Assembly: GCA_040755035.1 (NCBI GenBank)
Contig: JBFMBU010000030.1
Coordinates: 41,045 to 105,044 of the forward strand
Source: Thermodesulfobacteriota bacterium
GTDB taxonomy: Bacteria > Desulfobacterota > RBG-13-43-22
Length of the DNA: 64,000 bases
Direction of reading: 5' to 3'
In this document: positions 2,819 to 61,667 of the stretch, one piece after another
Position numbering within the stretch: the first letter of the stretch is position 1
Layout: every line of letters begins with the position of its first letter
Program-made: the position numbers and the translations under genes
The notes under the pieces: model-generated
Databases searched by the model: none
Seen by the model: only the letters and a program-made list of their open reading frames with translations
Told to the model about the DNA's origin: nothing

Positions 2819-3487
2819 ATGGTAGTGGCTGAACAAAAACCATTGAGTGAAATCCTGGAAATGGTCCAGCCGTATAAAAAAATCCTGGTGGCCGGTTGCA
2901 AGGGCTGTGTGACGGTCTGCAATGCCGGGGGGAAAAAAGAAGTGGAAATACTGGCCGCGGAACTGCGCATCGCTCGAAAAAAAGAAGGGATGGAAGGGGA
3001 TGTCCGGGAAATCACCCTGGAGCGGCAATGCGATCCGGAGTACATGGAACAGTTGGAGGAAGCCATCAGGGACCGGGATGCCGTACTTTCCATCGCCTGC
3101 AGTGTGGGGCCTCAATACATTGCCGGTCGTTTCCTTGATAAAATGGTCTTCCCCGGCCTGAATACCACCTTCATCGGCGGCTCACTGGAACATGGCGTTT
3201 TTGCTGAATTCTGTCAGGCCTGCGGGGCTTGCGGGATTCACAATTTCGGGGGATTATGCCCCATTGCCCGCTGTTCCAAAAGTCTGTTGAATGGTCCCTG
3301 CGGGGGGTCTTCCAGAGGCAAATGCGAGATCAGTAAAGAAGTGGATTGTGTTTGGCAGCTGATTTACGATCGTATGAGCCGTCTGGGGCAAATGGATCGC
3401 TTAACCAGGGTCATCCCCTGTAAGGATTGGACTACCAGCCGTGACGGCGGACCAAGGAAAACCATAAGGGAGGACTTGCGATTATGA
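2819..3487 (+). CDS. MetV-like methylene-THF reductase C-terminal-domain protein (Cys-rich, LNGPCGG motif)
   Basis: CxxC pairs, the LNGPCGGS motif, RBS aaggagg, and an ATGA overlap with metF. Confidence 0.75.
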   Translation: MVVAEQKPLSEILEMVQPYKKILVAGCKGCVTVCNAGGKKEVEILAAELRIARKKEGMEGDVREITLERQCDPEYMEQLEEAIRDRDAVLSIACSVGPQYIAGRFLDKMVFPGLNTTFIGGSLEHGVFAEFCQACGACGIHNFGGLCPIARCSKSLLNGPCGGSSRGKCEISKEVDCVWQLIYDRMSRLGQMDRLTRVIPCKDWTTSRDGGPRKTIREDLRL

Positions 3488-4407
3488 AATCAGGGAGTAA
3501 TTTGGAAAAGGTTCTCAGCGCCGGTCATTTTGCCGTAACCGGCGAATGCGGTCCTCCCAGGGGAGCTAATGCGCATGTGGTCCGGGAAAAAGCGGCCCAT
3601 TTAAAAGGGATTGTTGATTCGGTCAATATGACCGATAACCAGACGGCCGTAGTCCGTATGTCCAGTATGGCCGGTTGTTTGATTCTTCTCCAGGAGGGGC
3701 TGGAGCCGAACCTGCAGATGGTGGTCCGCGACCGGAACCGGATCGGCCTCCAAAGCGATATCCTGGGGGCATATGCCCTGGGAATTCGCAATATGCTTTG
3801 CCTCTCCGGCGACCACCAGAAATTCGGAGACCATCCTTCATCGAAAAATGTCTTTGATCTGGACTCCATGCAGTTGATTCAAACCGTTTACCGGATGCGG
3901 GAAGAGGGCAAGTTCATCAACGGTCAGGAAATCGATACTCCGCCGAAAATGTTCATCGGCGCGGCCGCTAACCCCTTTGCCGATCCGGCCGAATTCCGGG
4001 CCGTACGTCTGGGGAAAAAAGCAGCCTCCGGCGTCGATTTTGTACAAACCCAGTGCATCTTTAATCTGGACCGCTTTGAAAGATTTATGCAGCAGGTCAG
4101 AGACCTGGGGCTGGATGAAAAAGTATATATCCTGGGCGGGGTTACCCCGATGAAATCGGTCGGTATGGCCAATTATATGAAAAACCTGGTGCCGGGCATG
4201 GATGTGCCGGATGAGGTCATCAACCGCATGAAAGGCGTGGCCAAAAAAGATCAGGCCAAAGAAGGGATCGCCATCGCTGTGGAAACCATCCAACGACTGA
4301 AGGAGATGAAGGGGATCGCCGGGGTCCATATCATGGCCATCGAATGGGAGGAAAGGGTGCCGGAAATCACAGAAATGGCCGGGTTGCTTCCCAGACCCAA
4401 GGTATAA
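3484..4407 (+). CDS. metF: 5,10-methylenetetrahydrofolate reductase MetF
   Basis: Length 307 aa, MTHFR-like sequence, translationally coupled to the MetV-like gene. Confidence 0.85.
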   Translation: MKSGSNLEKVLSAGHFAVTGECGPPRGANAHVVREKAAHLKGIVDSVNMTDNQTAVVRMSSMAGCLILLQEGLEPNLQMVVRDRNRIGLQSDILGAYALGIRNMLCLSGDHQKFGDHPSSKNVFDLDSMQLIQTVYRMREEGKFINGQEIDTPPKMFIGAAANPFADPAEFRAVRLGKKAASGVDFVQTQCIFNLDRFERFMQQVRDLGLDEKVYILGGVTPMKSVGMANYMKNLVPGMDVPDEVINRMKGVAKKDQAKEGIAIAVETIQRLKEMKGIAGVHIMAIEWEERVPEITEMAGLLPRPKV

Positions 4408-8941: not shown

Positions 8942-9688
8942 CTATTTTTTAAGACCCACTTTTTTATATTGGTCGCGTTCCACGATATTCAAAAAGTCAG
9001 AGGAGAAGTTGTTCATCTCCGATTCCAGGATCCGCACCTGACTGGAAAAATAGTTATAGGCAATGACCGAAGGAATAGCGGCCGCCAATCCGGCGGCCGT
9101 GGCGATGAGGGCCTCGGAAATGCCGGGTGCGACGACGGCCAGGCTGGCCCCGCCGCGCAAGCCGATGCTTTGGAAGGAATTCATGATCCCCCAGACGGTA
9201 CCGAAGAGGCCGATAAAGGGGGCGGTATTTCCGGTGGTGGCCAGGAAGGTCAGGGCGTAACCCAGTCGGGTGACCTGGGAATTCATGGCCGCCCGCAAGG
9301 CCCGGGGCAGATTTTCAAAGCGAACCAGGCTGGTGGTCATGATATCCGGCGATTCTTTCAACAGGGTTTCCTCGGTTTCCTGCTGGACCTTGTATAGGCG
9401 GCCCAGTTCCTGGTAACCGATGCGAAAGACCTCGGCCACCGGGCTGAATTTGAGGTCCTTGGATTCGTTATAGGCCACGGCCAGGCTTTTACTTTTCCAG
9501 AAGATCTCTTGAAAGAGATTCGTTTCCTTCCTGGCCCGGTGGATGATCCGATATTTCATAAATATGATGGACCAGGAGAGAATGGAAAAGGCCAGAAGCA
9601 AGAAGAGCACCAGCTTGACAACCGGCCCGGCGTTCCAGACCATGGAAAGGATTTCATTTTGATGAATGATCGAAGGCATGAGCTTCAC
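8942..9688 (-). CDS. tolQ: TolQ (MotA/TolQ/ExbB proton channel)
   Basis: Length 248 aa, 3 TM, MotA_ExbB-like. Confidence 0.85.
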   Translation of the reverse strand: MKLMPSIIHQNEILSMVWNAGPVVKLVLFLLLAFSILSWSIIFMKYRIIHRARKETNLFQEIFWKSKSLAVAYNESKDLKFSPVAEVFRIGYQELGRLYKVQQETEETLLKESPDIMTTSLVRFENLPRALRAAMNSQVTRLGYALTFLATTGNTAPFIGLFGTVWGIMNSFQSIGLRGGASLAVVAPGISEALIATAAGLAAAIPSVIAYNYFSSQVRILESEMNNFSSDFLNIVERDQYKKVGLKK

Positions 9689-9912: not shown

Positions 9913-10353
9913 TTATTCTTCTTCTTCCTCTTCCTCCCCCTCTTCTTCTTCCGCCGGTTCCTCCCCTATGATTTCCTTAAGATATTCTTCGTATTCCTCG
10001 GCTGTAAGCAACTCATAATATTCCGTGGTCGACGGAACGTCTATTCGTACAATCCATCCGTCCTGATAAGGGTCCTCATTGAGTATTTCAGGGGAATCGA
10101 TGAGTTCCTGGTTGGCTTCCACAATTTCACCGCTCACCGGTGAAAATAGGTCAAGGACTTCGTCATGGGATTCTACGGAACCGAATGACTCGTCTTTGAC
10201 GACTTCATCCCCCTCTTCGGGGAGGTTAATTCCCGAAATATCACCCAGGTCTTCCTGGGCATAATCACTGATCCCGACCGTGATCCGATTATCTTCGTCC
10301 AAACGGGCCCAGATATGGTCCTTGCTGTATCTTAGCTCTTCTAAGATAACCAA
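9913..10353 (-). CDS. GcvH-like (glycine-cleavage H / lipoyl-domain fold) protein lacking the lipoyl-lysine, with a poly-Glu C-terminal tail
   Basis: Aligns gap-free to E. coli GcvH across the hairpin (LGD...PVSGEIV). The ESVK lipoylation motif is replaced by ESHD. C-terminus is EEPAEEEEGEEEEEEE. Confidence 0.75.
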   Translation of the reverse strand: MVILEELRYSKDHIWARLDEDNRITVGISDYAQEDLGDISGINLPEEGDEVVKDESFGSVESHDEVLDLFSPVSGEIVEANQELIDSPEILNEDPYQDGWIVRIDVPSTTEYYELLTAEEYEEYLKEIIGEEPAEEEEGEEEEEEE

Positions 10354-10596
10354 AATGTGCCCCCTTTTTCAAGTGTATTTGACTTCCCCATGAGCGACTT
10401 TTGTTTTTCTGCCGCTATTTTCGTATTATTCTGAGGTCTAATATAACCTAAAAAAATTAGCAAGTATTTTTTTATCAGGGATCCGTTTTTCTCTTCCTTA
10501 ACAAAAAAAACAGGAAAATGAGGGGAAACGGCCTGAAAAATGGCGATAATTTTCTTGACGGCCCCCCCCAAATTTATTAGGGGCTCGGTCTTACCC

Positions 10597-11079
10597 TCAG
10601 GATTCCTTCAGGGTCGCATAGCGGAAAAGCAGGTAGATAACACCCAGGGAAATTGCCGAATCGGCCACATTAAAGGCCGGCCAATGATAGGTTCCGATAA
10701 AAAAGTCCAGGAAATCAACCACCCCGCCGAAACGCATCCGGTCCACCAGATTACCCTGGGCACCGCCCAGAATTCCTCCCAGGGCCAAAAGGATCCCGGC
10801 CTTCTGCTGCGAATAACCAAAGGTGAAAATCAGGATTCCGACCATAGCCGCCACCGGAAACAAGAGCAGCAAGATATCCCGCCAAGCCGGGGCTGATCCC
10901 CCGAGGATCCCGAACGCCACCCCCTTATTTTGAATATGGACCAGATTGAAAAATCCGGAGATGACCGGTCGGGAGGAATAGAGAGGGAAATGGGAAACAA
11001 TATAGGCCTTGGTAATCATATCCAGGATAAAAACTACCAGGAAAGAAAGAACGAATAACCCGAATTTTTTTATGTTCAT
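10597..11079 (-). CDS. lspA: Lipoprotein signal peptidase II
   Basis: LspA-like with 4 TM and FNxAD-type motif (AFNVADSAI). Start taken at the internal Met MNIKKF, 11 nt after the ileS stop; conserved ileS-lspA order. Confidence 0.8.
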   Translation of the reverse strand: MNIKKFGLFVLSFLVVFILDMITKAYIVSHFPLYSSRPVISGFFNLVHIQNKGVAFGILGGSAPAWRDILLLLFPVAAMVGILIFTFGYSQQKAGILLALGGILGGAQGNLVDRMRFGGVVDFLDFFIGTYHWPAFNVADSAISLGVIYLLFRYATLKES

Positions 11080-11090
11080 GACACCCCTGA

Positions 11091-13886
11091 TTACACCATT
11101 GCTCCAATGGCCTGATGACAACGGGAACAGAGGGTGGGATGTTCCGGCAAACTTCCCACCTCGGTCCGAAAATTCCAGCACCGTTCGCATTTTTCCCCCA
11201 AGGCCTTTTCCACCCGGATGATCAGACCGGGGATTTCCGAACTGGAAACCCCCTCTAATGAAGCGGGACCTTTATGCAGCTCAACCTGGGAAACAATAAA
11301 CAGGGTCGGCAGAAAATCGATATAGGACCGAACAACCGAGCTCAGGGATTCCGGCAGGTCCAGGATTACCCGGGCATCCAGGGGATTACCGATCAGTTGA
11401 GAGCGGCGGGCCTGTTCCAGGGCCTTGGTGGCCTCGGCCCGCAGGGCCAGGAGGGTCGACCAGCGCTGATCCAGGGCCTCATCCTCTATGACGGTAAGGT
11501 TATCCGGAAATTGGGCCAGATGGACGCTTTCCACTTCTTTGTCCGCCGGGGGGAGAGAGGACCAGACTTCTTCAGCCGTGAAGGATAAAATGGGGGCCAT
11601 CAACCGGACCAGGGCCTTGAGGATAATGAGCAGGGCGGTTTGGGCTGATCTTCGTTCCCGGGACTTGGTGCCCGAAGTATAGAGCCGGTCTTTGAGGATA
11701 TCCAGATAGAAAGCACTCAGTTCATTGGTACAGAACTGGTAGAGGGTGTGGTAAACCACATGAAACTCAAAGCGTTCATAGGCCCGGCGAACCCGGCTGA
11801 TCACCTTTTGCATCTGCAGCAAGGCCCACTGGTCCAATTCTTCCATTTCCTTCAGGGGTACCTGATCCTGGGAAGATTCAAAATCGGAAATATTGCCCAA
11901 CAGGAAACGACAGGTGTTGCGGATGCGTCGATAGGCCTCGGTCAGTTGCTGGAGAATATTCTGGGAAATGCGTATATCATCCCGGTAGTCCTCGGCCGAA
12001 ACCCAAAGCCGTATGATTTCCGCACCATATTTTTTTATGACCTCTTCCGGGTTGATGACATTTCCCAGGGACTTGGACATTTTCTTCCCCTGCCCGTCAA
12101 CAAAGAAACCGTGGGTCAACACCGTCCCATAAGGGGCCTCGCCCCGGGTCCCGACGGCAGCCAGCAGGGAACTGTGAAACCAGCCCCGGTGTTGATCGCT
12201 TCCCTCCAGGTACAAATCGGCGGGCGCCCCGAGATAAGGACGGGCTTCCAGGACCGCCGCATAACTCACACCCGAGTCGAACCAGACATCCAGGATATCG
12301 GTTTCTTTGCGGAAGCGGGTCCCCTGGCAGTGGGGGCAAATGGTACCGGCAGGCACAAGCTGATCTTCCGATGAGGAAAACCAGATATCGGTCCCATGTT
12401 TTAAAACCAGGGATTCCAGATGGTTCAAGCTCTCTTTGGTCATGATCCAATTATTGCAGTTTTGACAGTAAAAGGCCGGGATGGGTACCCCCCAGGAACG
12501 CTGACGGGAAAGGCACCAATCCGGACGGTTTTCCATCATGCCCCGGATACGGTTCATGCCCCAGGCCGGCATCCAGGTCACCCGGTCGATTTCGGCCAAG
12601 GCCTTTTTCCGTAAGGAATTGGCTTCCATGGAAATAAACCATTGTTCTGTGGCCCGGAAGATGACCGGTTTTTTGCAGCGCCAGCAGTGGGGATAACTGT
12701 GCTCCAGAGATTCCTCACCTTTCAGGGCCTTTACCTGGCGCAGATGATCTTTAACCGCCTCATTGGCTTCAAAAACGTGTCGGCCGGCGAAAAATTCCAC
12801 TTCGGGGGTGAAATTTCCCCCGTCATCCACCGGGGAATAGATATCCAGGTGATAGCGGAGCCCGCTATCATAATCCTCCTGACCATGACCTGGTGCCGTA
12901 TGGACGATCCCGGTGCCGTCTTCCAGGGTTACATAAGTGGCTAAGATCATAATCGATTCCCGTTGATAAAGAGGATGACGGCTTTTTTTGCCTTCCAGGA
13001 ATTTGGGATCTATTCCGCAGAGGATTCGCGGGGAAGACCAGGAAAGTCTTTGACTGCATTTTTCCAATAATCCTTTGGCCAGAATAAAGACCTCGTCGCC
13101 CTGCTCGACAGCAACATAGTCATAATCCGGATGGAAGGCCAAGGCCAGGTTGGCCGGAATGGTCCAGGGAGTGGTAGTCCAAATAAGGACCGAAACCTTT
13201 TTGTCCCTCAGGGCAGGATATTCCTTGCTCAGATCGGAGAGGACCGGAAAAGCGACGAAAATAGAGGGAGAGGTATGGGGTTCATATTCCACTTCGGCCT
13301 CGGCCAGGGCCGTCCGGCAGGAACCGCACCAGTAAATGGGTTTTTTACTTTTATAGACGCTTCCCTGCAGAGCAAAGCGTCCGAACTCACGGATAATGAT
13401 CGCCTCATAAGCATTATCCATGGTCAGATAAGGATTGTCCCACTCCCCCAAAACCCCCAGTCGTTTAAACTCGTTACGCTGGATATCAATGAATTTCTCA
13501 GCATAAGCCCGGCAGCGCTGCCTGATTTCGGTCTGGGAAAGGGTCTTCCTCTTAGGCCCTAATTCCTTGTCTACCTGATGTTCTATCGGCAGCCCGTGAC
13601 AATCCCAACCCGGGACATAAGGGGCATCAAACCCGGACATCTGTTTGGATTTGATAATAATATCTTTTAAGGTCTTATTAAGGGCATGGCCGATATGAAT
13701 ATTTCCGTTGGCGTAAGGAGGACCGTCATGAAGGATGAATTTTTTTCGCCCGGCTGAAGCGCTCCGTATTTTTTGATATAATCCAATCTCTTCCCAGTGC
13801 TTCAACCATTCCGGTTCCTTCTGGGCCAGGTTGGCTTTCATGGGGAAGGCGGTTTTAGGCAGATTCAGGGTGTCTTTGTAATCCAT
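11091..13886 (-). CDS. ileS: Isoleucyl-tRNA synthetase
   Basis: HIGH motif ([11 protein letters not shown]), KMSKS motif, C-terminal Zn-finger CxxC; start taken at [12 protein letters not shown]. Confidence 0.9.
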
Positions 13887-14019
13887 AGGACCTCCGATAG
13901 AATGTTTCCTCTCTTCACTTATCATAACATAGAGATATGTCAAGGAGAAAGCGGGATTTTCTTTCCCATTTCTACTCCAGGACTTGCTTTTTGAGGGCTA
14001 ATCGTATAGTAAGAAAACC

Positions 14020-15020: not shown

Positions 15021-15911
15021 ATGGTTGAGATCGAAGATGAAATGGAATATGAGGGGATGGTCATCCGGCCTCCCAGCGAGGCCTATAGCATCCTGCTCCA
15101 GGTTACGGTGGGCTGCTCCCATAACAAGTGTTCCTTTTGCGCCACGTATAAGGACAAACGCTTCCGTATAAAAACGAATGAAAGAATTTTAAAGGACATC
15201 CTTTTTGCCTCCCAATATTGCCGGAGGCAGGACAAGGTCTTTCTGATGGATGGGGATGCCCTGATCATCCCCCAAAAACGGCTGGTCTGGATTTTGGAAA
15301 GGATTAGAGAACACCTTCCCTGGGTGAAAAGGGTGGGACTTTACGCCAATGCCAAAAGCATTGGTATGAAAAGCGATGAAGATTTAAAAACCCTCAAGTC
15401 CCTCGGCTTGGGGATTGCTTACCTGGGAGTGGAAACCGGCCATCCCGAACTGCTTAAAAAAATCAACAAGGGAACCTCCAGAGAAAACCTGATCCTTCAG
15501 GGTAAACGGTTAAAAAAAGCGGGGATCAAACTATCGGTTACTGTTTTATTGGGAATCGGCGGCCAGGAACTAACGCGGGAACACGCCTTGGCCACGGGAT
15601 CTTTGCTCAGCGAAATGGATCCGGATTTCGTCGGGGCCCTGACGGTCATGGTTCTGCCCAACACCCCCCTGGGCAAACAACTGACCGAAGGCCAATTCAA
15701 GCCCCTGACCGTTCCCGAGATCCTGACCGAACTGGGGGAAATGGTGGCCGCCACCCGGCTTACCCGGGGATATTTTTATTCCAACCACGCCTCCAACTAC
15801 CTGCCCTTGAAAATAAAATATCCCGAAGGCCAAGAGGCGGCCTTACATCTGATCGAAAAAGCCATACAGGGCGGGGTGGGCCTGCGTCCGGAATGGCAGC
15901 GGGGATTATGA
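15021..15911 (+). CDS. Radical SAM protein with non-canonical Cx4Cx2C cluster motif (CSHNKCSFC)
   Basis: GCSHNKCSFCA motif, glycine-rich SAM-binding region. Alternative start at Met13 (about 15057) has the better RBS (gagggg). Confidence 0.8.
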   Translation: MVEIEDEMEYEGMVIRPPSEAYSILLQVTVGCSHNKCSFCATYKDKRFRIKTNERILKDILFASQYCRRQDKVFLMDGDALIIPQKRLVWILERIREHLPWVKRVGLYANAKSIGMKSDEDLKTLKSLGLGIAYLGVETGHPELLKKINKGTSRENLILQGKRLKKAGIKLSVTVLLGIGGQELTREHALATGSLLSEMDPDFVGALTVMVLPNTPLGKQLTEGQFKPLTVPEILTELGEMVAATRLTRGYFYSNHASNYLPLKIKYPEGQEAALHLIEKAIQGGVGLRPEWQRGL

Positions 15912-19540: not shown

Positions 19541-21535
19541 ATGCCAGAAATCACTTCAATGATGGAAGAAACCAGGAAATTCCCCCCTTCCAAAGAATTC
19601 GTGGAACAGGCCCACATCAAAAGCCGAGAAGCTTATGAAGTCATGTGGAAGGAATCGGTCCAAAATCCCGAAAAATTCTGGGGTAATGTGGCCTCAGAGC
19701 TTTTCTGGTTTAAAAAATGGGACAAGGTGAATGAAGAAGATTTTAAAAACGCCAAGTTGCAATGGTTTATCGGCGGCAAGACCAATATTACTTATAACTG
19801 CCTCGACTACCAGATTGAAAAGGGTCGGGGGGATAAGACCGCCATCCTCTTCCAGGGGGAACCGGAAGAGGATGTTAAAAAGATCTCTTACAAGGATTTG
19901 TTGAGGGAGGTATCGAGGTTTGCCAATGTCCTGAAAAAGCGCGGCGTAAAAAAAGGGGACCGGGTGGCCATCTACCTGCCCATGATCGCCGAGCTACCCA
20001 TAGCCATGATGGCCTGCGCCCGCATCGGTGCCGTTCATACCATCGTCTTCGGCGGATTTTCAGCCGAGGCTTTAAGAGACCGTATCCTTGACGCCGGGGC
20101 CAAGGTCCTGATCACGGCCAACGGCTATTGGCGGGCCGGGCGGAAAGTCGGCTCCAAGGTCAATGCCGATGCCGCTGTCGGGTATTGCGCCAAACAGGGA
20201 CATACGGTGGAGACGGTCTTTATCGTCAAACGGCTTGAGGATTTTGACGTTTCCATGAACACCGGCCGAGACCTGTGGTGGGAGGAGGAAATGAATGCCT
20301 CCGATATCAGTGATACCTGTCCCGCCGAACCCATGGACGCGGAAGATCCCCTCTTTATCCTCTATACCTCCGGTTCAACCGGAAAACCCAAAGGGGTCCT
20401 TCATACCATCGGCGGTTATATGGTTTATACCTATCTGACTTTTAAGTATGTTTTTGACTATAAAGACCAAGATATTTATTGGTGTACGGCCGATATCGGC
20501 TGGGTGACCGGCCACTCCTATATCGTTTATGGTCCTCTGGCCAACGGCGCTACCTCCGTTGTCTTTGAAAGCGTTCCCACCTATCCCCAGCCGGACCGGT
20601 TCTGGCAGGTAGTGGAAAAATTCAAAGTCAACATCTTCTACACCGCTCCCACGGCCATCCGGGCCATCATGCGGGAAGGGGATAAATGGCCCATTGGCAG
20701 AGACCTTTCTTCTCTCCGTCTATTAGGCACGGTCGGGGAACCCATCAACCCCGAGGCCTGGATGTGGTATCACAAGGTGATCGGCAAGGAAAGATGCCCC
20801 ATAGTGGATACCTGGTGGCAAACCGAAACCGGCGGGATTTTACTCACCCCCCTGCCCGGGGCCTGGCCGACCAAACCCGGTTCGGCAACCCTGCCCTTTT
20901 TCGGTGTGGATCCGGTGGTTTTGAAAGGAAGAGGATCCGCCGACGAGCCGGCGAAGGAGGCCGGAGTCAATGAGGGAGGCGAGCTCTGTATCCGAAGATC
21001 CTGGCCCGGATTGATGCGGACGGTTTATGGAGAACCGGAGCGATTTTTTAATACCTATTTTGTCCAGCAACCCGGGTTTTATTTCTCCGGTGACGGCGCC
21101 CGGAAGGATGAGGACGGCTATTTCTGGCTCATGGGCCGAATCGATGATGTGGTCAATGTATCCGGACACCGGATCGGAACCGCTGAGGTGGAAAGCGCCC
21201 TGGTTTCTCATCCCCATGTGGCCGAAGCGGCAGTGGTCGGTTTCCCCCATGACATCAAAGGGGAAGACCTCTACGCTTATGTCATCCTTAAAGTGGGTTA
21301 TGAAGGGAGTGAGGAATTGAAAAAGGAACTGGTGGCTCATGTCCGGAAGGAGATCGGCCCCATCGCTTCACCGGGTAAACTGCAATTCGTTCCCGGTTTA
21401 CCGAAGACGAGGTCGGGCAAGATCATGCGCCGGATCCTTAGAAAAGTGGCCTCCGGTGAAATCAGCGCCTTAGGGGATACCACCACTCTGGCCGATCCGT
21501 CGGTTGTGGAAGAAATCGTCAAAGGAAGACTATAA
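19541..21535 (+). CDS. acs: Acetyl-CoA synthetase (AMP-forming)
   Basis: Length 664 aa; [14 protein letters not shown]-binding motif; Acs-like N- and C-termini. Confidence 0.9.
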
Positions 21536-22985: not shown

Positions 22986-24119
22986 CTATAATTTATGTAA
23001 AGGGAAGACCACCTCCTTAATATAGCCCACCACCCGGCGGGCCTCCTGCAAGGTCTTTTCCTTAACCTCCCCCTCGCTTAAAAATGGGTAGTCGTAAAGA
23101 CTGCCCACCTCCATTTCCGGCCCGAACATCATCCCCCCCACCAAACCGGCAAACTCGTCTACAGGCACGACTTCGTTGAGGATGGCCCAGGCCAAGGTCC
23201 AGCAGCGTGCCGTCCGATAAAGATCATATCCTCCTCCACCTAATCCGATCACCCGGGGGCAGAGCTCACGAATGCTTCTTACGGTCTGCTGATAGCCGTT
23301 GTTGGTCAATTTCAGATGGGTGAGGGGATCGGATATCAAGGTATCGGCCCCCAGCTCGGCTACAATGAGGTCCGGGGCAAAGGCCCGGACCAAAGGCGGG
23401 ACAACGCCCTCAAAGGCCAAGGCGTAAACCTCGTCATCAGTGCCGGGCTCCAAAGGGATGTTGACCGTATAGCCCTTTCCTTCTCCGGCGCCGATTTCCG
23501 TTTCCCAACCGGACCAGGGATAAAGGGTCTTTCCGGTTTCATGCAGGGAAATGACCAAGACCCTGGGATCTTCGTAGAAGGCCTCCTGCACCCCGTTCCC
23601 ATGGTGGGCGTCGCAGTCGATATAAGCGATTTTCAGATCCGGTTTTTTTTGCAGGAGGTCAAGTAGGGAAATCGCGATATCGTTCAAATAGCAGAACCCT
23701 TCAACATGGTTGGGCATGGCATGATGGAAACCGCCGAATGGGTTAAAGGCCGAATCGGCCTCCCCCTCCAGAATGCGTCTGAGGGCCTCATGGGTCCCTC
23801 CGGCAGCCTGCAAGGACCAGTCAAAAATCCCGGGGAGGATGGGATTGTCCTTGGTGCCCAGGCCGAATTCCATCATCTCAATTTCAAATTCACCCCTTCC
23901 GGCTTTCTCCACGGCCTGAATCAAGGCCGGTGTGTGGAAAAGGGTAAGCAAACCCGTATCCAAGGGTTGGGGGTCGAGGATGGTCATCCAGGGATGGTTC
24001 ATGACCCCGTAACGGTTGCACAGATCATAGGTCTTGATGGCCCGTTCCGGCTTATAGGGGTGATCGTATCCGAAATCAAAATGCCCCATGTCACCGGAAT
24101 AAACAAAAATCGTTTTCAT
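22986..24119 (-). CDS. Histone-deacetylase-family protein (AcuC/acetoin-utilisation-type deacetylase)
   Basis: HDAC motifs GFCYLNDIA and DCDAHHGNG. Confidence 0.8.
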   Translation of the reverse strand: MKTIFVYSGDMGHFDFGYDHPYKPERAIKTYDLCNRYGVMNHPWMTILDPQPLDTGLLTLFHTPALIQAVEKAGRGEFEIEMMEFGLGTKDNPILPGIFDWSLQAAGGTHEALRRILEGEADSAFNPFGGFHHAMPNHVEGFCYLNDIAISLLDLLQKKPDLKIAYIDCDAHHGNGVQEAFYEDPRVLVISLHETGKTLYPWSGWETEIGAGEGKGYTVNIPLEPGTDDEVYALAFEGVVPPLVRAFAPDLIVAELGADTLISDPLTHLKLTNNGYQQTVRSIRELCPRVIGLGGGGYDLYRTARCWTLAWAILNEVVPVDEFAGLVGGMMFGPEMEVGSLYDYPFLSEGEVKEKTLQEARRVVGYIKEVVFPLHKL

Positions 24120-54023: not shown

Positions 54024-54416
54024 TTAATAAGAAACCGGCAGGATGTCTGTTTGTGAAAAATCTTCTCCTTTGAACAGGAGAGGTTCCCCGGCATATTTCG
54101 CCAGAGCATAGGCACAGCAATCCCCAATATTCAGACCGGCCGGATGATTCCCTTTTCCGTAATGGCGCCAGGCCACTCGGGCTATTTCGGACTGATCGGG
54201 ATTCATGGATACGATTTCCATCTGGGTTCGGTGGAGCAGCAGATCAAGTTCCCGCCCCCCGGGTTCACCCTTTTTAGCTTCGATGACGATAGCCGTTTCC
54301 AGCCAATTAATAACACTGATTATACGACGTGGATCATTCGCGATGGCCTGGGCAAAGCGCCCGGCTTCCATTTCATCCAGCAGAAGGGCAATAAGTGCTG
54401 AAGAGTCTATGACCAT
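54024..54416 (-). CDS. vapC: PIN-domain toxin VapC
   Basis: PIN acidic residues; 130 aa; overlaps the vapB stop. Confidence 0.85.
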   Translation of the reverse strand: MVIDSSALIALLLDEMEAGRFAQAIANDPRRIISVINWLETAIVIEAKKGEPGGRELDLLLHRTQMEIVSMNPDQSEIARVAWRHYGKGNHPAGLNIGDCCAYALAKYAGEPLLFKGEDFSQTDILPVSY

Positions 54417-54899: not shown

Positions 54900-55172
54900 C
54901 CAAAGGGTCTCGTATAAGGGGACATTCGTTCTGAAAGTGCTTTGCAAAAAAAGACAGTCAATCAAAAGAAAAGAGTCGATGATCTTGGAGGAATTGCGGT
55001 CGTTAGTTGATGGTCTGGATTGAAATGGTTTTCCGATAACTGTGGCGAAGGGGCCACACCCGTTTCCATTCGGAACGGGTTGATTAAACCCTTCCAAGGC
55101 ACCCTTAATATTAACTCCCGCCTCTATCGATTCTCACTTGACAATAATATCCTTTTGAGATATTACTTCATC

Positions 55173-55454
55173 ATGATCAAGAAGTTCAAATGCAAGGAAA
55201 CCGAGAAGCTATTTAACGGGCGGTTTTCTTCAAAATTACCGCAAACGATTCAACGATCAGCGGCCATCAAATTGAAAATGATTAATGCCGCAACTCGGCT
55301 GGAAACCTTGCGTATTCCTCCGTCTAATAATCTGGAAGTATTGCAAAGAGAAAGAGAGGGGCAATATAGTATCCGGATCAATAAACAATGGCGTATTTGT
55401 TTTGTTTGGAAAAACGGTGATGCTTTTGATGTAGAAATTGTTGATTACCATTGA
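55173..55454 (+). CDS. higB: HigB toxin (RelE/ParE superfamily)
   Basis: MIKKFKCKETEKLF...NGDAFDVEIVDYH, a classic HigB. Confidence 0.9.
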   Translation: MIKKFKCKETEKLFNGRFSSKLPQTIQRSAAIKLKMINAATRLETLRIPPSNNLEVLQREREGQYSIRINKQWRICFVWKNGDAFDVEIVDYH

Positions 55455-56129: not shown

Positions 56130-57590
56130 CTAAGTGGGTACCCCTTTATCCGGTTGTAATTTTTTAAATTCACTAGCGGCTGCGATAATGGGCTTCTAAC
56201 CGGCTCGTCGGAGGAGCCGCCTACCACTATTGGGAGGACCCGGGGGAAACCCGGAAACGCCTATCTAAGGTTCCTTCCTCAGGCGGCCTGCCTTTCTCCC
56301 AGAAGTTGGAGACCGGTTTGTTGTTTGTCCACGGCTAGCATATAGGCCACCAGCTTCCTGGCTACAGCCAAGGTGGCCCTGTTTGGGGTCCCTTTTTGTA
56401 ACTCCCGTTCATGCAAGATAGCCAGTGGGCGGTTCCAGCGCGGCGCAAGTTTTGCAGCCTCAATGAGTATGGTTTGCAAATGTTTGTTCCGTTTTTTGGA
56501 AATCGGTCCCCGCTGTTCTTTGGCGGCCGATTCCCGTTGAGCACTGCAAAGGCCACAATAGCTGACTGCTTGGCGGATGGAACCAAATCGTCCTGGCTCA
56601 CCGACCTCCAGTACCCAGGTCAAAGCCGTCAGTTCACCAATCCCCCGAATGCCCATAAGACCTTCCATCCGATCCCTTATCAAATCGTTATGGCGCAAGG
56701 CTTCCACCAGCCTTTTCTGGCAGGAAGAAAATATCTCATAGTTGGACCGGCTCAGCTTCAGAGGCTCCTTGACCGATGGAGGGATTTCTTCCACCCGTTC
56801 CAGAAACTCACGGAAATATTTTTTACCGTGAATCCGTTTCTTGCTGTAGGTTACTCCAACTTCCATCAGTAGCCCGGTCATCTTGTTCTGCATCTTGACG
56901 GCCGTCCGAACTATATGGTTTCGATATCGTAAGATCCGTCGCAGTTCCCTTATCTCTTCCGGTAGCATATGACATTCCGGAAGAAGATCAACCCGCAGCA
57001 AATCGACTATGCGCTCGGCATCGGCCCGGTCGTTCTTTTTCTTGGCCGCTGTTATGGCTCTTAACATCTCAGGATGAGCTACTTTGAGATCAACTGCATG
57101 TGGCTTCAGAAAATCGTAAACCCAGCCAGTGAATATCGTCGCTTCCATCGCCCCAACCCAAGGCCCCGGCAACCCTTTTCCCCATTCCAACAAAGATGAC
57201 CTGCTGGCTTCAATCCTCCCCTGGTTATATAACCTTCCAGTATTTGTTTTAATACAATAAGCGATTATCCTCTTGTGAATATCCAGCCCAATATAGTAAA
57301 CTCTTTTCATGGAAACCTCTTTCTGGTTTGGTTCTGAGCGAGAACGCTCGTCTCCGCTGCTTGTCTCTTTAAGCATTTTCCACCACCTGGAGGTTTCCTG
57401 CAACTCCTTTTACTTATGCATTCAAACACAATAAGTAATTTCAAAACAATTGAGTAATGGTTTTAAGGAATTGAGCGAATAGGAGAAAAAAGGCGCAACA
57501 GATGAGAGAAAGCGGTCAGAAGCCACATAACCAAATCACTCAACCGGACGGCGGGTTGAGCCCGCCGCCGGTTAGCTCGCCGTTCGGAAT
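56130..57590 (-). mobile_element. IS110-family insertion sequence (boundaries approximate)
   Basis: IS110-type transposase gene with about 280-nt upstream and about 150-nt downstream non-coding flanks, and a GC hairpin at about 57544-57571. No terminal IRs, as is typical for IS110. Confidence 0.45.
56279..57310 (-). CDS. IS110-family transposase
   Basis: N-terminal MKRVYYIGLDIHK (DEDD_Tnp_IS110) and C-terminal Transposase_20-like HTH; RBS aagagg. Confidence 0.85.
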   Translation of the reverse strand: MKRVYYIGLDIHKRIIAYCIKTNTGRLYNQGRIEASRSSLLEWGKGLPGPWVGAMEATIFTGWVYDFLKPHAVDLKVAHPEMLRAITAAKKKNDRADAERIVDLLRVDLLPECHMLPEEIRELRRILRYRNHIVRTAVKMQNKMTGLLMEVGVTYSKKRIHGKKYFREFLERVEEIPPSVKEPLKLSRSNYEIFSSCQKRLVEALRHNDLIRDRMEGLMGIRGIGELTALTWVLEVGEPGRFGSIRQAVSYCGLCSAQRESAAKEQRGPISKKRNKHLQTILIEAAKLAPRWNRPLAILHERELQKGTPNRATLAVARKLVAYMLAVDKQQTGLQLLGERQAA

Positions 57591-60595: not shown

Positions 60596-61667
60596 GGGAC
60601 GTTGGTTCTAAAACAACTTGACAAAAGGGGAAAGAAGGGATAATCTCTCAATATGCCAAGACAACCAAGACTTGATACAACCGGTGCATTGCATCATATT
60701 ATGGGGCGGGGGATTGAAGGGAAAGAGGTATTTGCCGACCAGAAGGATTGTGAGGATTTTCTTCGCCGGCTTAAGGATCTTTGTGAGAATGAGGCCTTAA
60801 GTATTTATGCCTGGGCCTTGATGGACAACCACTTTCATCTTTTGGCCAGGACTGGAAGGTTATCTCTATCTGAAAGTATGCGGAAGCTTTTAACCGGCTA
60901 TGTGGTCAACTATAACCGCCGACATAAAAGATATGGCCATCTTTTTCAAAACCGATTTAAATCCATTCTATGTGAAGATGATCCTTACCTATTGGAGTTG
61001 ACGCGATATATACATCTGAATCCTATCAGGGCCGGGGTAGTTAAGGATATGAAGTCGTTGAGTAGATATGAAAGGTGCGGCCATTCGGCTATTATGGGGG
61101 TTATTAATCGTTCTTGGCAGGATCGGGACACGATTTTGTTCTATTTTGGCAAGAAACGGAAAGCTGCGATTGGAAAATATGAGCAATTTGTCAAGGATGG
61201 GATTAAGGCTGGAGGCCGGCCGGAACTTGTGGGAGGAGGGCTGATTCGGAGCCTTGGGGGATGGTCCCAGGTTCTTTCGCTAAAAAGGACCGGGAAAAAG
61301 ATATTTTCAGATGAACGAATATTAGGGGGAAGTGATTTTGTAAAAGAGGCGATCAAGGATGCAGAGGAAAAAGAAAGGGAGACACTGCGATTAAATCTAA
61401 AGATATCCGATATTGCCTCATGGGCAGAAAAGATAAGCCAGGGAGAGGGCGTTGATAAATCCGAATTACGTTCAGGGATAAGGAAAAGAGAGGTGGTAAA
61501 AGCTCGAAAGATATTTTGCCAGTTGACGGTAAAAAAGATGGGGTATTCCGGAGCAGAGGTTGCTCGATTTCTTGGCATCACAACTTCGGCTGTAAATCGT
61601 TTGGCCGTCTCAGAGGAGTTACCGGAAATAATGAAATATCTTTAAGTTGTTTTGGAACCAACGTCCC
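60596..61667 (+). mobile_element. About 1.07-kb unit: Y1 (HUH) IS200/RAYT-like transposase-DnaA_C fusion gene flanked by 24-bp terminal inverted repeats (gggacgttggttctaaaacaactt / aagttgttttggaaccaacgtccc)
   Basis: IRs seen directly with 1 mismatch; the right IR overlaps the stop codon. Confidence 0.6.
60653..61645 (+). CDS. REP-associated-tyrosine-transposase-like (IS200-like Y1, HxH plus YIHLNPIRAG motifs) fused to a DnaA-C-terminal-like HTH domain
   Basis: DNHFHLL HUH motif, RYIHLNPIRAGVV Tyr motif, and a C-terminal HTH (GYSGAEVARFLGITTSAV). Confidence 0.8.
   Translation: MPRQPRLDTTGALHHIMGRGIEGKEVFADQKDCEDFLRRLKDLCENEALSIYAWALMDNHFHLLARTGRLSLSESMRKLLTGYVVNYNRRHKRYGHLFQNRFKSILCEDDPYLLELTRYIHLNPIRAGVVKDMKSLSRYERCGHSAIMGVINRSWQDRDTILFYFGKKRKAAIGKYEQFVKDGIKAGGRPELVGGGLIRSLGGWSQVLSLKRTGKKIFSDERILGGSDFVKEAIKDAEEKERETLRLNLKISDIASWAEKISQGEGVDKSELRSGIRKREVVKARKIFCQLTVKKMGYSGAEVARFLGITTSAVNRLAVSEELPEIMKYL

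Follow-up and report, generated by a model that had tools for sequence, protein, structure and literature searches.

A conserved GcvH-like protein of Thermodesulfobacteriota without the lipoyl-lysine and with an acidic tail

What keeps a glycine cleavage H protein (GcvH) in a genome once it lacks the lysine that bears the lipoyl arm? The question is raised by a gene in a 64,000-nt stretch (the window) of a metagenome-assembled genome (MAG) of a Thermodesulfobacteriota bacterium (contig JBFMBU010000030.1), which encodes a GcvH-like protein numbered here as mature E. coli GcvH (Table 1). The protein is matched end to end by the Pfam model GCV_H (PF01597; 6.9e-40, 136 bits, cut-off 22) and passes the NCBIfam models NF002270 (149.9 bits, cut-off 117) and TIGR00527 (136.2 bits, cut-off 115.85). 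It shares fold, motifs and above-cut-off scores with canonical GcvH/GCSH (PF01597, TIGR00527). An identical sequence is held in GenBank as MEW6184576.1, titled 'MAG: glycine cleavage system protein GcvH [Thermodesulfobacteriota bacterium]'.

A gap-free phmmer alignment pairs residues 5-126 with residues 5-126 of E. coli GcvH (3a7a/3a8i) at 44% identity and sets ESHD64 opposite ESVK64, with Asp64 (codon GAC, 10162-10164) at the position of the lipoyl-lysine. This column was unchanged in a MAFFT alignment with 120 homologues and in an alignment with 150 diverse GcvH, and these alignments, together with the AlphaFold model described below, bear out the aspartate placed there by the original prediction. 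When 19 family members were compared with 95 canonical sequences (those with Lys64 and Glu/Asp14), lysine occupied position 64 in 100% of the canonical sequences, and in the family the position was variable and held no lysine. The lysine in the motif VVKDES (K53), raised earlier as a possible occupant of the hairpin tip, is no alternative site, as the AlphaFold model sets it three positions ahead of the first hairpin strand, at the strand end remote from the tip, and neither a profile nor a structural alignment made here placed a lysine at the tip. Lysine is found at the K53 column in 24% of canonical GcvH, and human GCSH has it there as well.

Exactly six residues that are at least 80% conserved in canonical GcvH were lost in the GcvH-like family, namely P4, E14, V40, V63, K64 and S67. 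The positions of E14, V40, K64 and S67 also turned variable in the family, and those of V40, V63 and S67 now vary more than any others in the protein. Glu14, 97% conserved in canonical GcvH, is replaced by Ala, Ile, Val or Thr. In working H proteins Glu-12 and Glu-14 lock the aminomethyl nitrogen inside the cavity, and Ser-67 and Asp-68 are steps along the aminomethyl release path (Zhang et al., PMC7733448). Of these pocket residues the GcvH-like protein has Ile for Glu14, Leu for Ser67 (a variable position in the family) and Asp for Glu12, and has kept Asp68. As the lost Glu-14, Ser-67 and Lys-64 are residues of the arm and pocket according to PMC7733448, the aminomethyl-carrier apparatus is dismantled, and not the attachment site alone. 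Other canonical motifs are retained (H13, W15, G27, Q33, G37, P45, E61, P72, G75, N81, P88, N92, PY95-96, GW99-100 and Y121). The protein is not lipoylatable at the canonical site and is no glycine-cleavage carrier; the earlier denial of glycine-cleavage function is upheld by the combined loss of the lipoyl-lysine, Glu14, Val40, Val63 and Ser67.

The fold itself is predicted to be intact. An AlphaFold model built from a 150-sequence alignment had a mean predicted local distance difference test (pLDDT) score of 85.4, and about 90 over residues 1-130, with hairpin strands at 56-62 and 66-70 and H63-D64-E65 at the tip. A first model from 30 close homologues only (pLDDT 56.9) was discarded. Foldseek aligned the model to solved H proteins with template modelling (TM) scores of 0.92-0.96 and a root-mean-square deviation (rmsd) of about 1 Å, including Thermus 1onl (TM 0.96, rmsd 0.9 Å) and E. 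coli 3ab9 (TM 0.95). Structure prediction, proposed as a check on the original claim, thus returned a canonical H-protein fold with Asp64 at the tip and a disordered poly-Glu tail.

The poly-glutamate tail claimed for the protein is confirmed by IIGEEPAEEEEGEEEEEEE, in which acidic residues make up 13 of 19, and by a tail in every orthologue. The scaffold or chaperone-like role that the original prediction proposed on account of this tail is conjectural. Throughout the family the tail is acidic and varies in length, sequence and GAA/GAG composition, often with I or V embedded after 'GEEP/GEEQ'. Of the residues in the protein, whose poly-Glu tail is 16-19 residues long, 49 are acidic and 7 basic, giving a net charge of -42; the mean is -37 for the family and -22 for canonical GcvH. 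Lysines number only three in the protein, and K53 and K126 never vary within the family. Neither a signal peptide nor a membrane segment was seen on reading the sequence.

Scanning a single genome for each GTDB species gave 18 orthologous loci of up to about 20 kb each (L001-L018). All belong to MAGs of uncultured Thermodesulfobacteriota or 'delta proteobacterium' recovered from soil, peat and groundwater. The lysine-to-aspartate change itself, whose conservation in relatives had been proposed as a check, is not conserved, position 64 being N in six orthologues, L in five, G in three, D in two and I and R in one each, with lysine in 0/18. The acidic tail is present in 18/18. About 80 further metagenomic clusters at 90% identity likewise combine a missing lysine with a tail, except P0043, which has Lys at position 64. 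As the exact protein is in GenBank and the missing lysine and the tail recur across orthologous genomes and metagenomic clusters, a sequencing artefact is excluded for both features.

Selection on these genes was estimated over codons 1-127 by the Nei-Gojobori method as the ratio of non-synonymous to synonymous divergence (dN/dS), with synonymous sites close to saturation. The median ratio was 0.066 across 117 usable pairs, and 0.03-0.08 between the window gene and its orthologues. Non-synonymous divergence was 0.38 at positions 14 and 62-66, compared with 0.078 elsewhere. Constraint everywhere but at the former active site reads as the signature of changed function, not of decay, and because the lysine was replaced variably while the rest of the protein, fold and surface included, stayed strongly constrained (dN/dS about 0.05), the protein is taken to be a functional, non-lipoylatable H-protein derivative under strong purifying selection. 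The gene is presumably expressed, being conserved. All 19 orthologues (the window and L001-L018) start with TTG, at 10351-10353 in the window; retention of this weak start codon in 19/19 behind a conserved AAAGGGGG may reflect a tuned expression level.

Lysine-less H proteins extend beyond the clade of the window, as seen in a profile search of 1.84 billion representatives supplemented by further word-indexed searches. Among 150 diverse GcvH, 37 are lysine-less, and 36 of these also lack Glu/Asp14 and 27 are acid-tailed; outside the query family the corresponding counts are 17/18 and 11/18. The 113 lysine-bearing sequences include 95 that keep Glu/Asp14 and 8 with an acidic tail. Intermediates also occur (P0087, P0088 and L020), in which the lysine is kept, Glu14 is gone and the acidic tail is even longer. 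The nearest canonical relatives, P0100 and P0095, lie in gcvT-gcvH(-gcvP) operons, whereas the lysine-less genes never do in the loci examined (Table 1).

Cultured organisms also encode lysine-less, Glu14-less H proteins: Thermodesulfatator indicus, T. atlanticus and T. autotrophicus; Thermosulfurimonas dismutans, T. marina and strain F29; Thermodesulfobacterium commune and T. geofontis; Caldimicrobium thiodismutans; Thermosulfuriphilus ammonigenes; and Syntrophus aciditrophicus. The Thermodesulfobacteria versions have the acidic tail where full-length sequences were retrieved. In Thermosulfurimonas and Thermodesulfatator (P0314, P0316, P0324, P0343 and P0375) this tail holds a conserved aromatic motif (EEEEFDFEEEE, EEEEEFFFEEEE).

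Eight of these hosts (three Thermodesulfatator, two Thermodesulfobacterium, Thermosulfurimonas dismutans, Thermosulfurimonas marina and S. aciditrophicus) were compared with their rows in Supplementary Table 6 of a 2026 study of the reductive glycine pathway (PMC12827605). All eight rows give 'No hit' for GCST, GCSP, GCSP-alpha and GCSP-beta and a hit for GCSH, and the GCSH sequences in the alignment of that study are the lysine-less proteins. In the eight cultured hosts checked, the lysine-less H protein is by these rows an orphan and no paralogue of a working GcvH, because no T or P protein is listed in those genomes. The window holds no canonical gcvH, gcvT, gcvP or lipoate gene within its 64 kb, and the 18 orthologous loci hold no gcvT or gcvP and no lipoate ligase or synthase gene. 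The word 'paralog' in the original prediction accordingly fits neither the gene content of the window nor the supplementary rows for cultured relatives. The GcvH-like gene stands outside any gcvT/gcvP operon and has relatives in genomes listed without T and P. By analogy with these hosts, the protein is more likely an orphan than a second copy in the window genome as well.

The order in which the carrier decayed is suggested by the Syntrophales, in which a 132-aa Glu14-less GcvH subfamily is common (P0408-P0527) and keeps the lysine in 101/120 members. Like the window gene, the Glu14-less genes of Syntrophales and Desulfomonile have a small or hydrophobic residue for Glu14 and lie outside gcv operons; unlike it, their products, 43% identical to the window protein, have no long acidic tail and mostly keep the lysine. 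Within Syntrophales the lysine was lost in the genus Syntrophus (Asn) and in a few others (Arg, Asp, Ser), which indicates repeated, independent loss, as judged from these sequences. Because this Glu14-less subfamily mostly keeps its lysine, Glu14 seems to have been lost first and the lysine later and repeatedly, and a neighbour-joining tree, though too crude for proof, agrees with this order. The family would thus illustrate the repurposing of a carrier by ordered decay.

Two curated offshoots of GcvH are thought to lie outside glycine cleavage, the chlamydial TIGR03077 'not_gcvH' and the Desulfovibrio-type NF045810 'GcvH-related protein'. The window protein scores far below both (58.5 against a cut-off of 144 and 47.6 against 150, respectively). 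Ten diverse lysine-less proteins gave the same picture, 8/10 passing a GcvH cut-off and 0/10 reaching either offshoot family. As the window protein and these ten relatives all miss both offshoot cut-offs, the lysine-less, acid-tailed group has no curated family of its own. The GcvH family and its fold are known; what is new is the uncurated variant. Under the NCBIfam and Pfam thresholds these proteins receive a wrong name, 'glycine cleavage system protein GcvH', and pathway inference that requires an H protein can be misled in turn: in the parts of PMC12827605 used here they are counted as GCSH, the missing lysine passes unremarked, and the T. indicus protein WP_013906762.1 served as a query. 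A search of the literature on lysine-less H proteins and on the Syntrophus protein found nothing specific.

The explanation favoured here is that a correctly folded member of the GcvH family, no longer lipoylated or carrying an aminomethyl group, is kept for a lipoate-independent role. In the window genome it would likewise be an orphan left over from a glycine cleavage system since lost, and no second copy. Its acidic surface and flexible polyanionic tail would bind other proteins or cations, making it an adaptor or regulator in place of a carrier. Strong constraint across deep lineages on a swinging-arm carrier without its arm suggests a function that is probably one of protein binding. Clients may lie in acyl-group, lipid or lipoprotein metabolism, since the recurrent neighbours (lspA-lgt upstream; fabD, a CobB sirtuin or GNAT downstream) handle acyl or lipid groups. 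This whole package, a 'dead' H protein that is an orphan, functional and active without a prosthetic group through protein or cation contacts, is considered moderately probable, with most of the weight on 'dead, orphan, functional'. Cultured hosts such as Thermodesulfatator indicus, Thermosulfurimonas and S. aciditrophicus make the lysine-less proteins experimentally approachable.

Several points weigh against this explanation. Canonical GcvH is already acidic (mean -22), and acidity alone is nothing new. The Syntrophus version is lysine-less with almost no tail, showing that tail and lysine loss are separable. Gene content around the window gene is known from 64 kb of a MAG only, and orphan status there is by analogy. 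The neighbour-joining tree used to group the lysine-less lineages is crude. No single neighbour is universal; as neighbours differ among lineages, gene context gives weak hints.

A wider proposal, tentative and on balance doubtful, is that lysine-less, Glu14-less, mostly acid-tailed H proteins form an old, widespread and unrecognised Thermodesulfobacteriota family that took on a new lipoate-independent housekeeping role after loss of glycine cleavage. Such a family would take in lineages of soil and groundwater, every cultured member of the Thermodesulfobacteria examined, and Syntrophus, and the polyanionic tail may have replaced the lipoyl arm, docking basic clients (FabD, substrates of Lgt/LspA, CobB).

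Table 1. Positions of the GcvH-like gene, its parts and its neighbours in the window, with the position-64 residue and gene order of more distant relatives
Feature	Coordinates	Strand	Description and basis
GcvH-like coding sequence	9913..10353	minus	146 aa, TTG start, stop codon included; open reading frame list
Acidic C-terminal tail IIGEEPAEEEEGEEEEEEE, residues 128-146	9916..9972	minus	Translation; 131-146 predicted disordered (pLDDT <50)
His63-Asp64 codons CAT GAC	10162..10167	minus	At the Val63 and lipoyl-Lys64 positions of canonical GcvH, hairpin tip
Ile14 codon (canonical Glu14)	10312..10314	minus	Alignment
Ribosome-binding site AAAGGGGG	10360..10367	minus	Six bases 5' of the TTG start; kept in 19/19 aligned upstream regions
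14-mer GGTTATATTAGACC with TATATT -10-like hexamer	10435..10448	minus	Preceded by AAAAAA-ACTTGC(C/T)AAT; upstream alignment
tolQ	8942..9688	minus	TIGR02796, 235.3 bits (cut-off 221); opens the tolQ-tolR-tolA-tolB-pal-ybgF cluster, running to 4562
lspA (signal peptidase II)	10597..11190	minus	TIGR00077, 109.6 bits (cut-off 73.95)
ileS	11091..13943	minus	TIGR00392, 960.7 bits; synteny; first gene of the ileS-lspA(-lgt)-gcvH-like run
P0086 (63% identity)			Position 64 Arg; ileS-lspA-H-sirtuin-tolQRA
P0088			Position 64 Lys; ileS-lspA-lgt-H-GNAT
P0089			Position 64 Glu; lspA-lgt-H-fabD-POR
P0105			Position 64 Arg; H-fabD-POR
P0343 (identical to T. indicus protein; locus from MAG contig)			Position 64 Gln; moaA-H-fabD
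P0125, P0091			Position 64 Glu, Asn; hydrolase-H-resB-ccsA
P0408 (identical to S. aciditrophicus protein; locus from MAG contig)			Position 64 Asn; pepP-H-rpsU

A protein with the H fold and no lysine might also act as a decoy or regulatory subunit. It would then compete for the P, T or L proteins, or for a lipoyl ligase or synthase, against a lipoylated, canonical GcvH or a lipoyl domain, and thereby tune the activity of these enzymes. The fold and many canonical surface residues are indeed kept (44% identity to E. coli GcvH, TM about 0.95), and there is a precedent in the plant BADC proteins. These lysine-less BCCP paralogues reportedly tune acetyl-CoA carboxylase by competition, a finding attributed to Salie et al. 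2016, and are the nearest known 'dead carrier': like the GcvH-like protein, they are a conserved swinging-arm carrier domain without the prosthetic-group lysine. However, BADC belongs to the biotinyl branch and coexists with a functional BCCP and its enzyme, whereas the partner enzymes of the GcvH-like protein appear to be absent in relatives. With no canonical gcvH, gcvT, gcvP or lipoate gene in the window, with no T or P protein to regulate in the rows for cultured organisms that have the same protein type, and with variability now concentrated around the arm, the docking zone for client enzymes, the decoy is unlikely.

Improbable to much the same degree is a role as partner, regulator or target of lysine-acyl modifying enzymes, with a CobB-type sirtuin, as adaptor or substrate mimic. 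The sirtuin gene lies directly 3' of the GcvH-like gene in 12/18 orthologous loci (L001-L003, L005, L008-L010, L012 and L014-L017), as in the P0086 lineage, and starts 7-17 bp after its stop codon in the loci inspected (e.g. L005:10446-11192). Its product is a canonical CobB-type NAD-dependent deacylase (NF001753, 286 bits; NF040867). The lysine-bearing relative P0088 has a GNAT acetyltransferase gene in the same position. A precedent for a link between sirtuins and H-like proteins is GcvH-L of Streptococcus and Staphylococcus (SirTM/macrodomain/LplA2 operon; PDB 5a35; PMC4518038), likewise an H homologue outside glycine cleavage and linked to a sirtuin, as the GcvH-like gene is in most relatives and not in the window. 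GcvH-L keeps its lysine, which is lipoylated by LplA2, the protein then being ADP-ribosylated by the SirTM-class sirtuin (PMC4518038). By contrast, the GcvH-like protein has no lysine at that site and only three elsewhere, the sirtuin of its relatives is CobB-type and not of the SirTM class, the loci contain no macrodomain or ligase (LplA2) gene, and similarity to 5a35 is weak (22% identity).

The distribution of the sirtuin also argues against this partnership. The gene is split into two frames in L016 (10466-11180), reduced to remnants in L013 (10449-10708) and absent from five other loci, and these states look like gene loss caught at several stages. No sirtuin was detectable in the whole window, and remnants sought in the 224-bp gap before tolQ were not found. 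The GcvH-like gene is equally conserved in the window and in the relatives that lost the sirtuin from the locus, and other lineages have fabD or resB downstream. As a separate observation, genes for an acetyl-CoA synthetase, a classic lysine-acetylation target, and a zinc-dependent HDAC/AcuC-type deacetylase (19541-21535 and 22986-24119) lie within 14 kb of the locus in this genome, from whose GcvH-like locus the sirtuin is gone.

Less probable again is an accessory role in the Tol-Pal system or in lipoprotein maturation, with the gene co-transcribed with tolQRAB-pal-ybgF in the slot of the proteobacterial ybgC. On the minus strand of the window, ileS and lspA are followed after 243 bp by the GcvH-like gene, and this after 224 bp by tolQ, tolR, tolA-like, tolB, pal and ybgF/cpoB. 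Wherever the contigs of the 18 loci reach that far, the order from ileS to ybgF is the same, with lgt and the sirtuin as variable inserts. Upstream, lspA(-lgt) is present in 16/18 loci, those with the region covered, and in three lineages farther removed. In most loci (L006-L008 and L011-L018) lgt stands between lspA and the GcvH-like gene, as it does in L020/L035, an outgroup that has the lysine; the window (gap 10354-10596), L003, L005, L009 and L010 lack it there, and L004 has short lgt-like fragments only. The adjacency to tolQ on which the original prediction remarked holds in the window, and the synteny is kept throughout the clade, but 12/18 relatives have a CobB sirtuin gene in between; the adjacency therefore appears lineage-specific and the tol-pal link over-read. 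The species are also close (IleS 74-85% identical), so that shared order may be inheritance only, and more distant lysine-less relatives, with the exception of P0086, are not beside tol genes. The reading-based lack of a signal peptide or membrane segment is a further point against such a role.

Transcription signals bear on the same question. The GcvH-like gene lies more than 220 bp from both neighbours and has its own conserved upstream element, GGTTATATTAGACC, of which the window contains one exact copy, with 0.2 expected for two mismatches or fewer. Exact copies occur once each in 14/18 loci (L002-L007, L010, L011 and L013-L018), always 80-320 nt upstream of the start codon, and the element is probably the gene's own promoter or leader. 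A riboswitch is unlikely, as the 5' leader is conserved only at the 14-mer and the ribosome-binding site. Rfam at gathering thresholds, a tRNA scan and a scan for promoter and terminator consensus gave nothing informative around the gene. A palindrome-like CCAAT...ATTGG seen in some upstream regions was dismissed, as it is not conserved across loci. Downstream, the window shows no convincing terminator between the GcvH-like gene and tolQ, and transcription may read through into tolQ, in keeping with co-transcription; several sirtuin-less loci, on the other hand, have a hairpin and U-run right after the stop codon of the GcvH-like gene.

It is very improbable that the protein remains a prosthetic-group carrier modified at K53, K11 or K126 or through its C-terminal glutamate tail. 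The invariance of K53 and K126 would fit such a carrier, and in LysW-type proteins C-terminal Glu tails serve as carrier arms. A RimK/LysX-type ATP-grasp gene (L046:12417-13253) is located 2 kb from the Thermodesulfatator H gene, on the opposite strand; as a tail-modifying enzyme it was rejected, being found in one lineage, on the opposite strand and beside compatible-solute-type genes. Against modification elsewhere, lipoyl and octanoyl transferases recognise the lysine at the hairpin tip; K53 precedes the first hairpin strand, far from that tip, and its column is also Lys in 24% of canonical GcvH, lipoylated at K64 only. The tail, for its part, is conserved in neither sequence nor length.

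A decaying relic, pseudogene or assembly error without function, for which the loss of the catalytic lysine and the absence of glycine cleavage partners from relatives might speak, is hardly credible, being contradicted by the selection analysis, by the start codon, ribosome-binding site, upstream element and intact reading frame kept in 19 genomes and about 80 metagenomic clusters, and by the confident, native-like AlphaFold model.

Among the neighbouring genes, TolR, TolB, Pal and YbgF score above curated cut-offs and the TolA-like protein below. The longest reading frame for lspA shares 100 nt with the 3' end of ileS; with no match to the LspA family before residue 41, translation probably begins at an internal codon downstream of 11190. 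A radical-SAM gene at 15021-15911 was considered as a lipoyl synthase and rejected, as it matches no LipA model. Elsewhere in the window, 52-2187, 2819-3487 and 3484-4407 encode an HdrA-like flavoprotein that has 4Fe-4S domains and, close to it, a methylenetetrahydrofolate reductase of the MetF type and a small upstream reading frame. Such an arrangement is typical of Wood-Ljungdahl-type C1 metabolism and fits an anaerobe that may do without a glycine cleavage system. Towards the other end lies a mobile or selfish cluster of a PIN-domain toxin, a HigB-like toxin, an IS110-family transposase and an IS200/Y1-type transposase (54024-54416, 55020-55454, 56279-57403 and 60653-61645).

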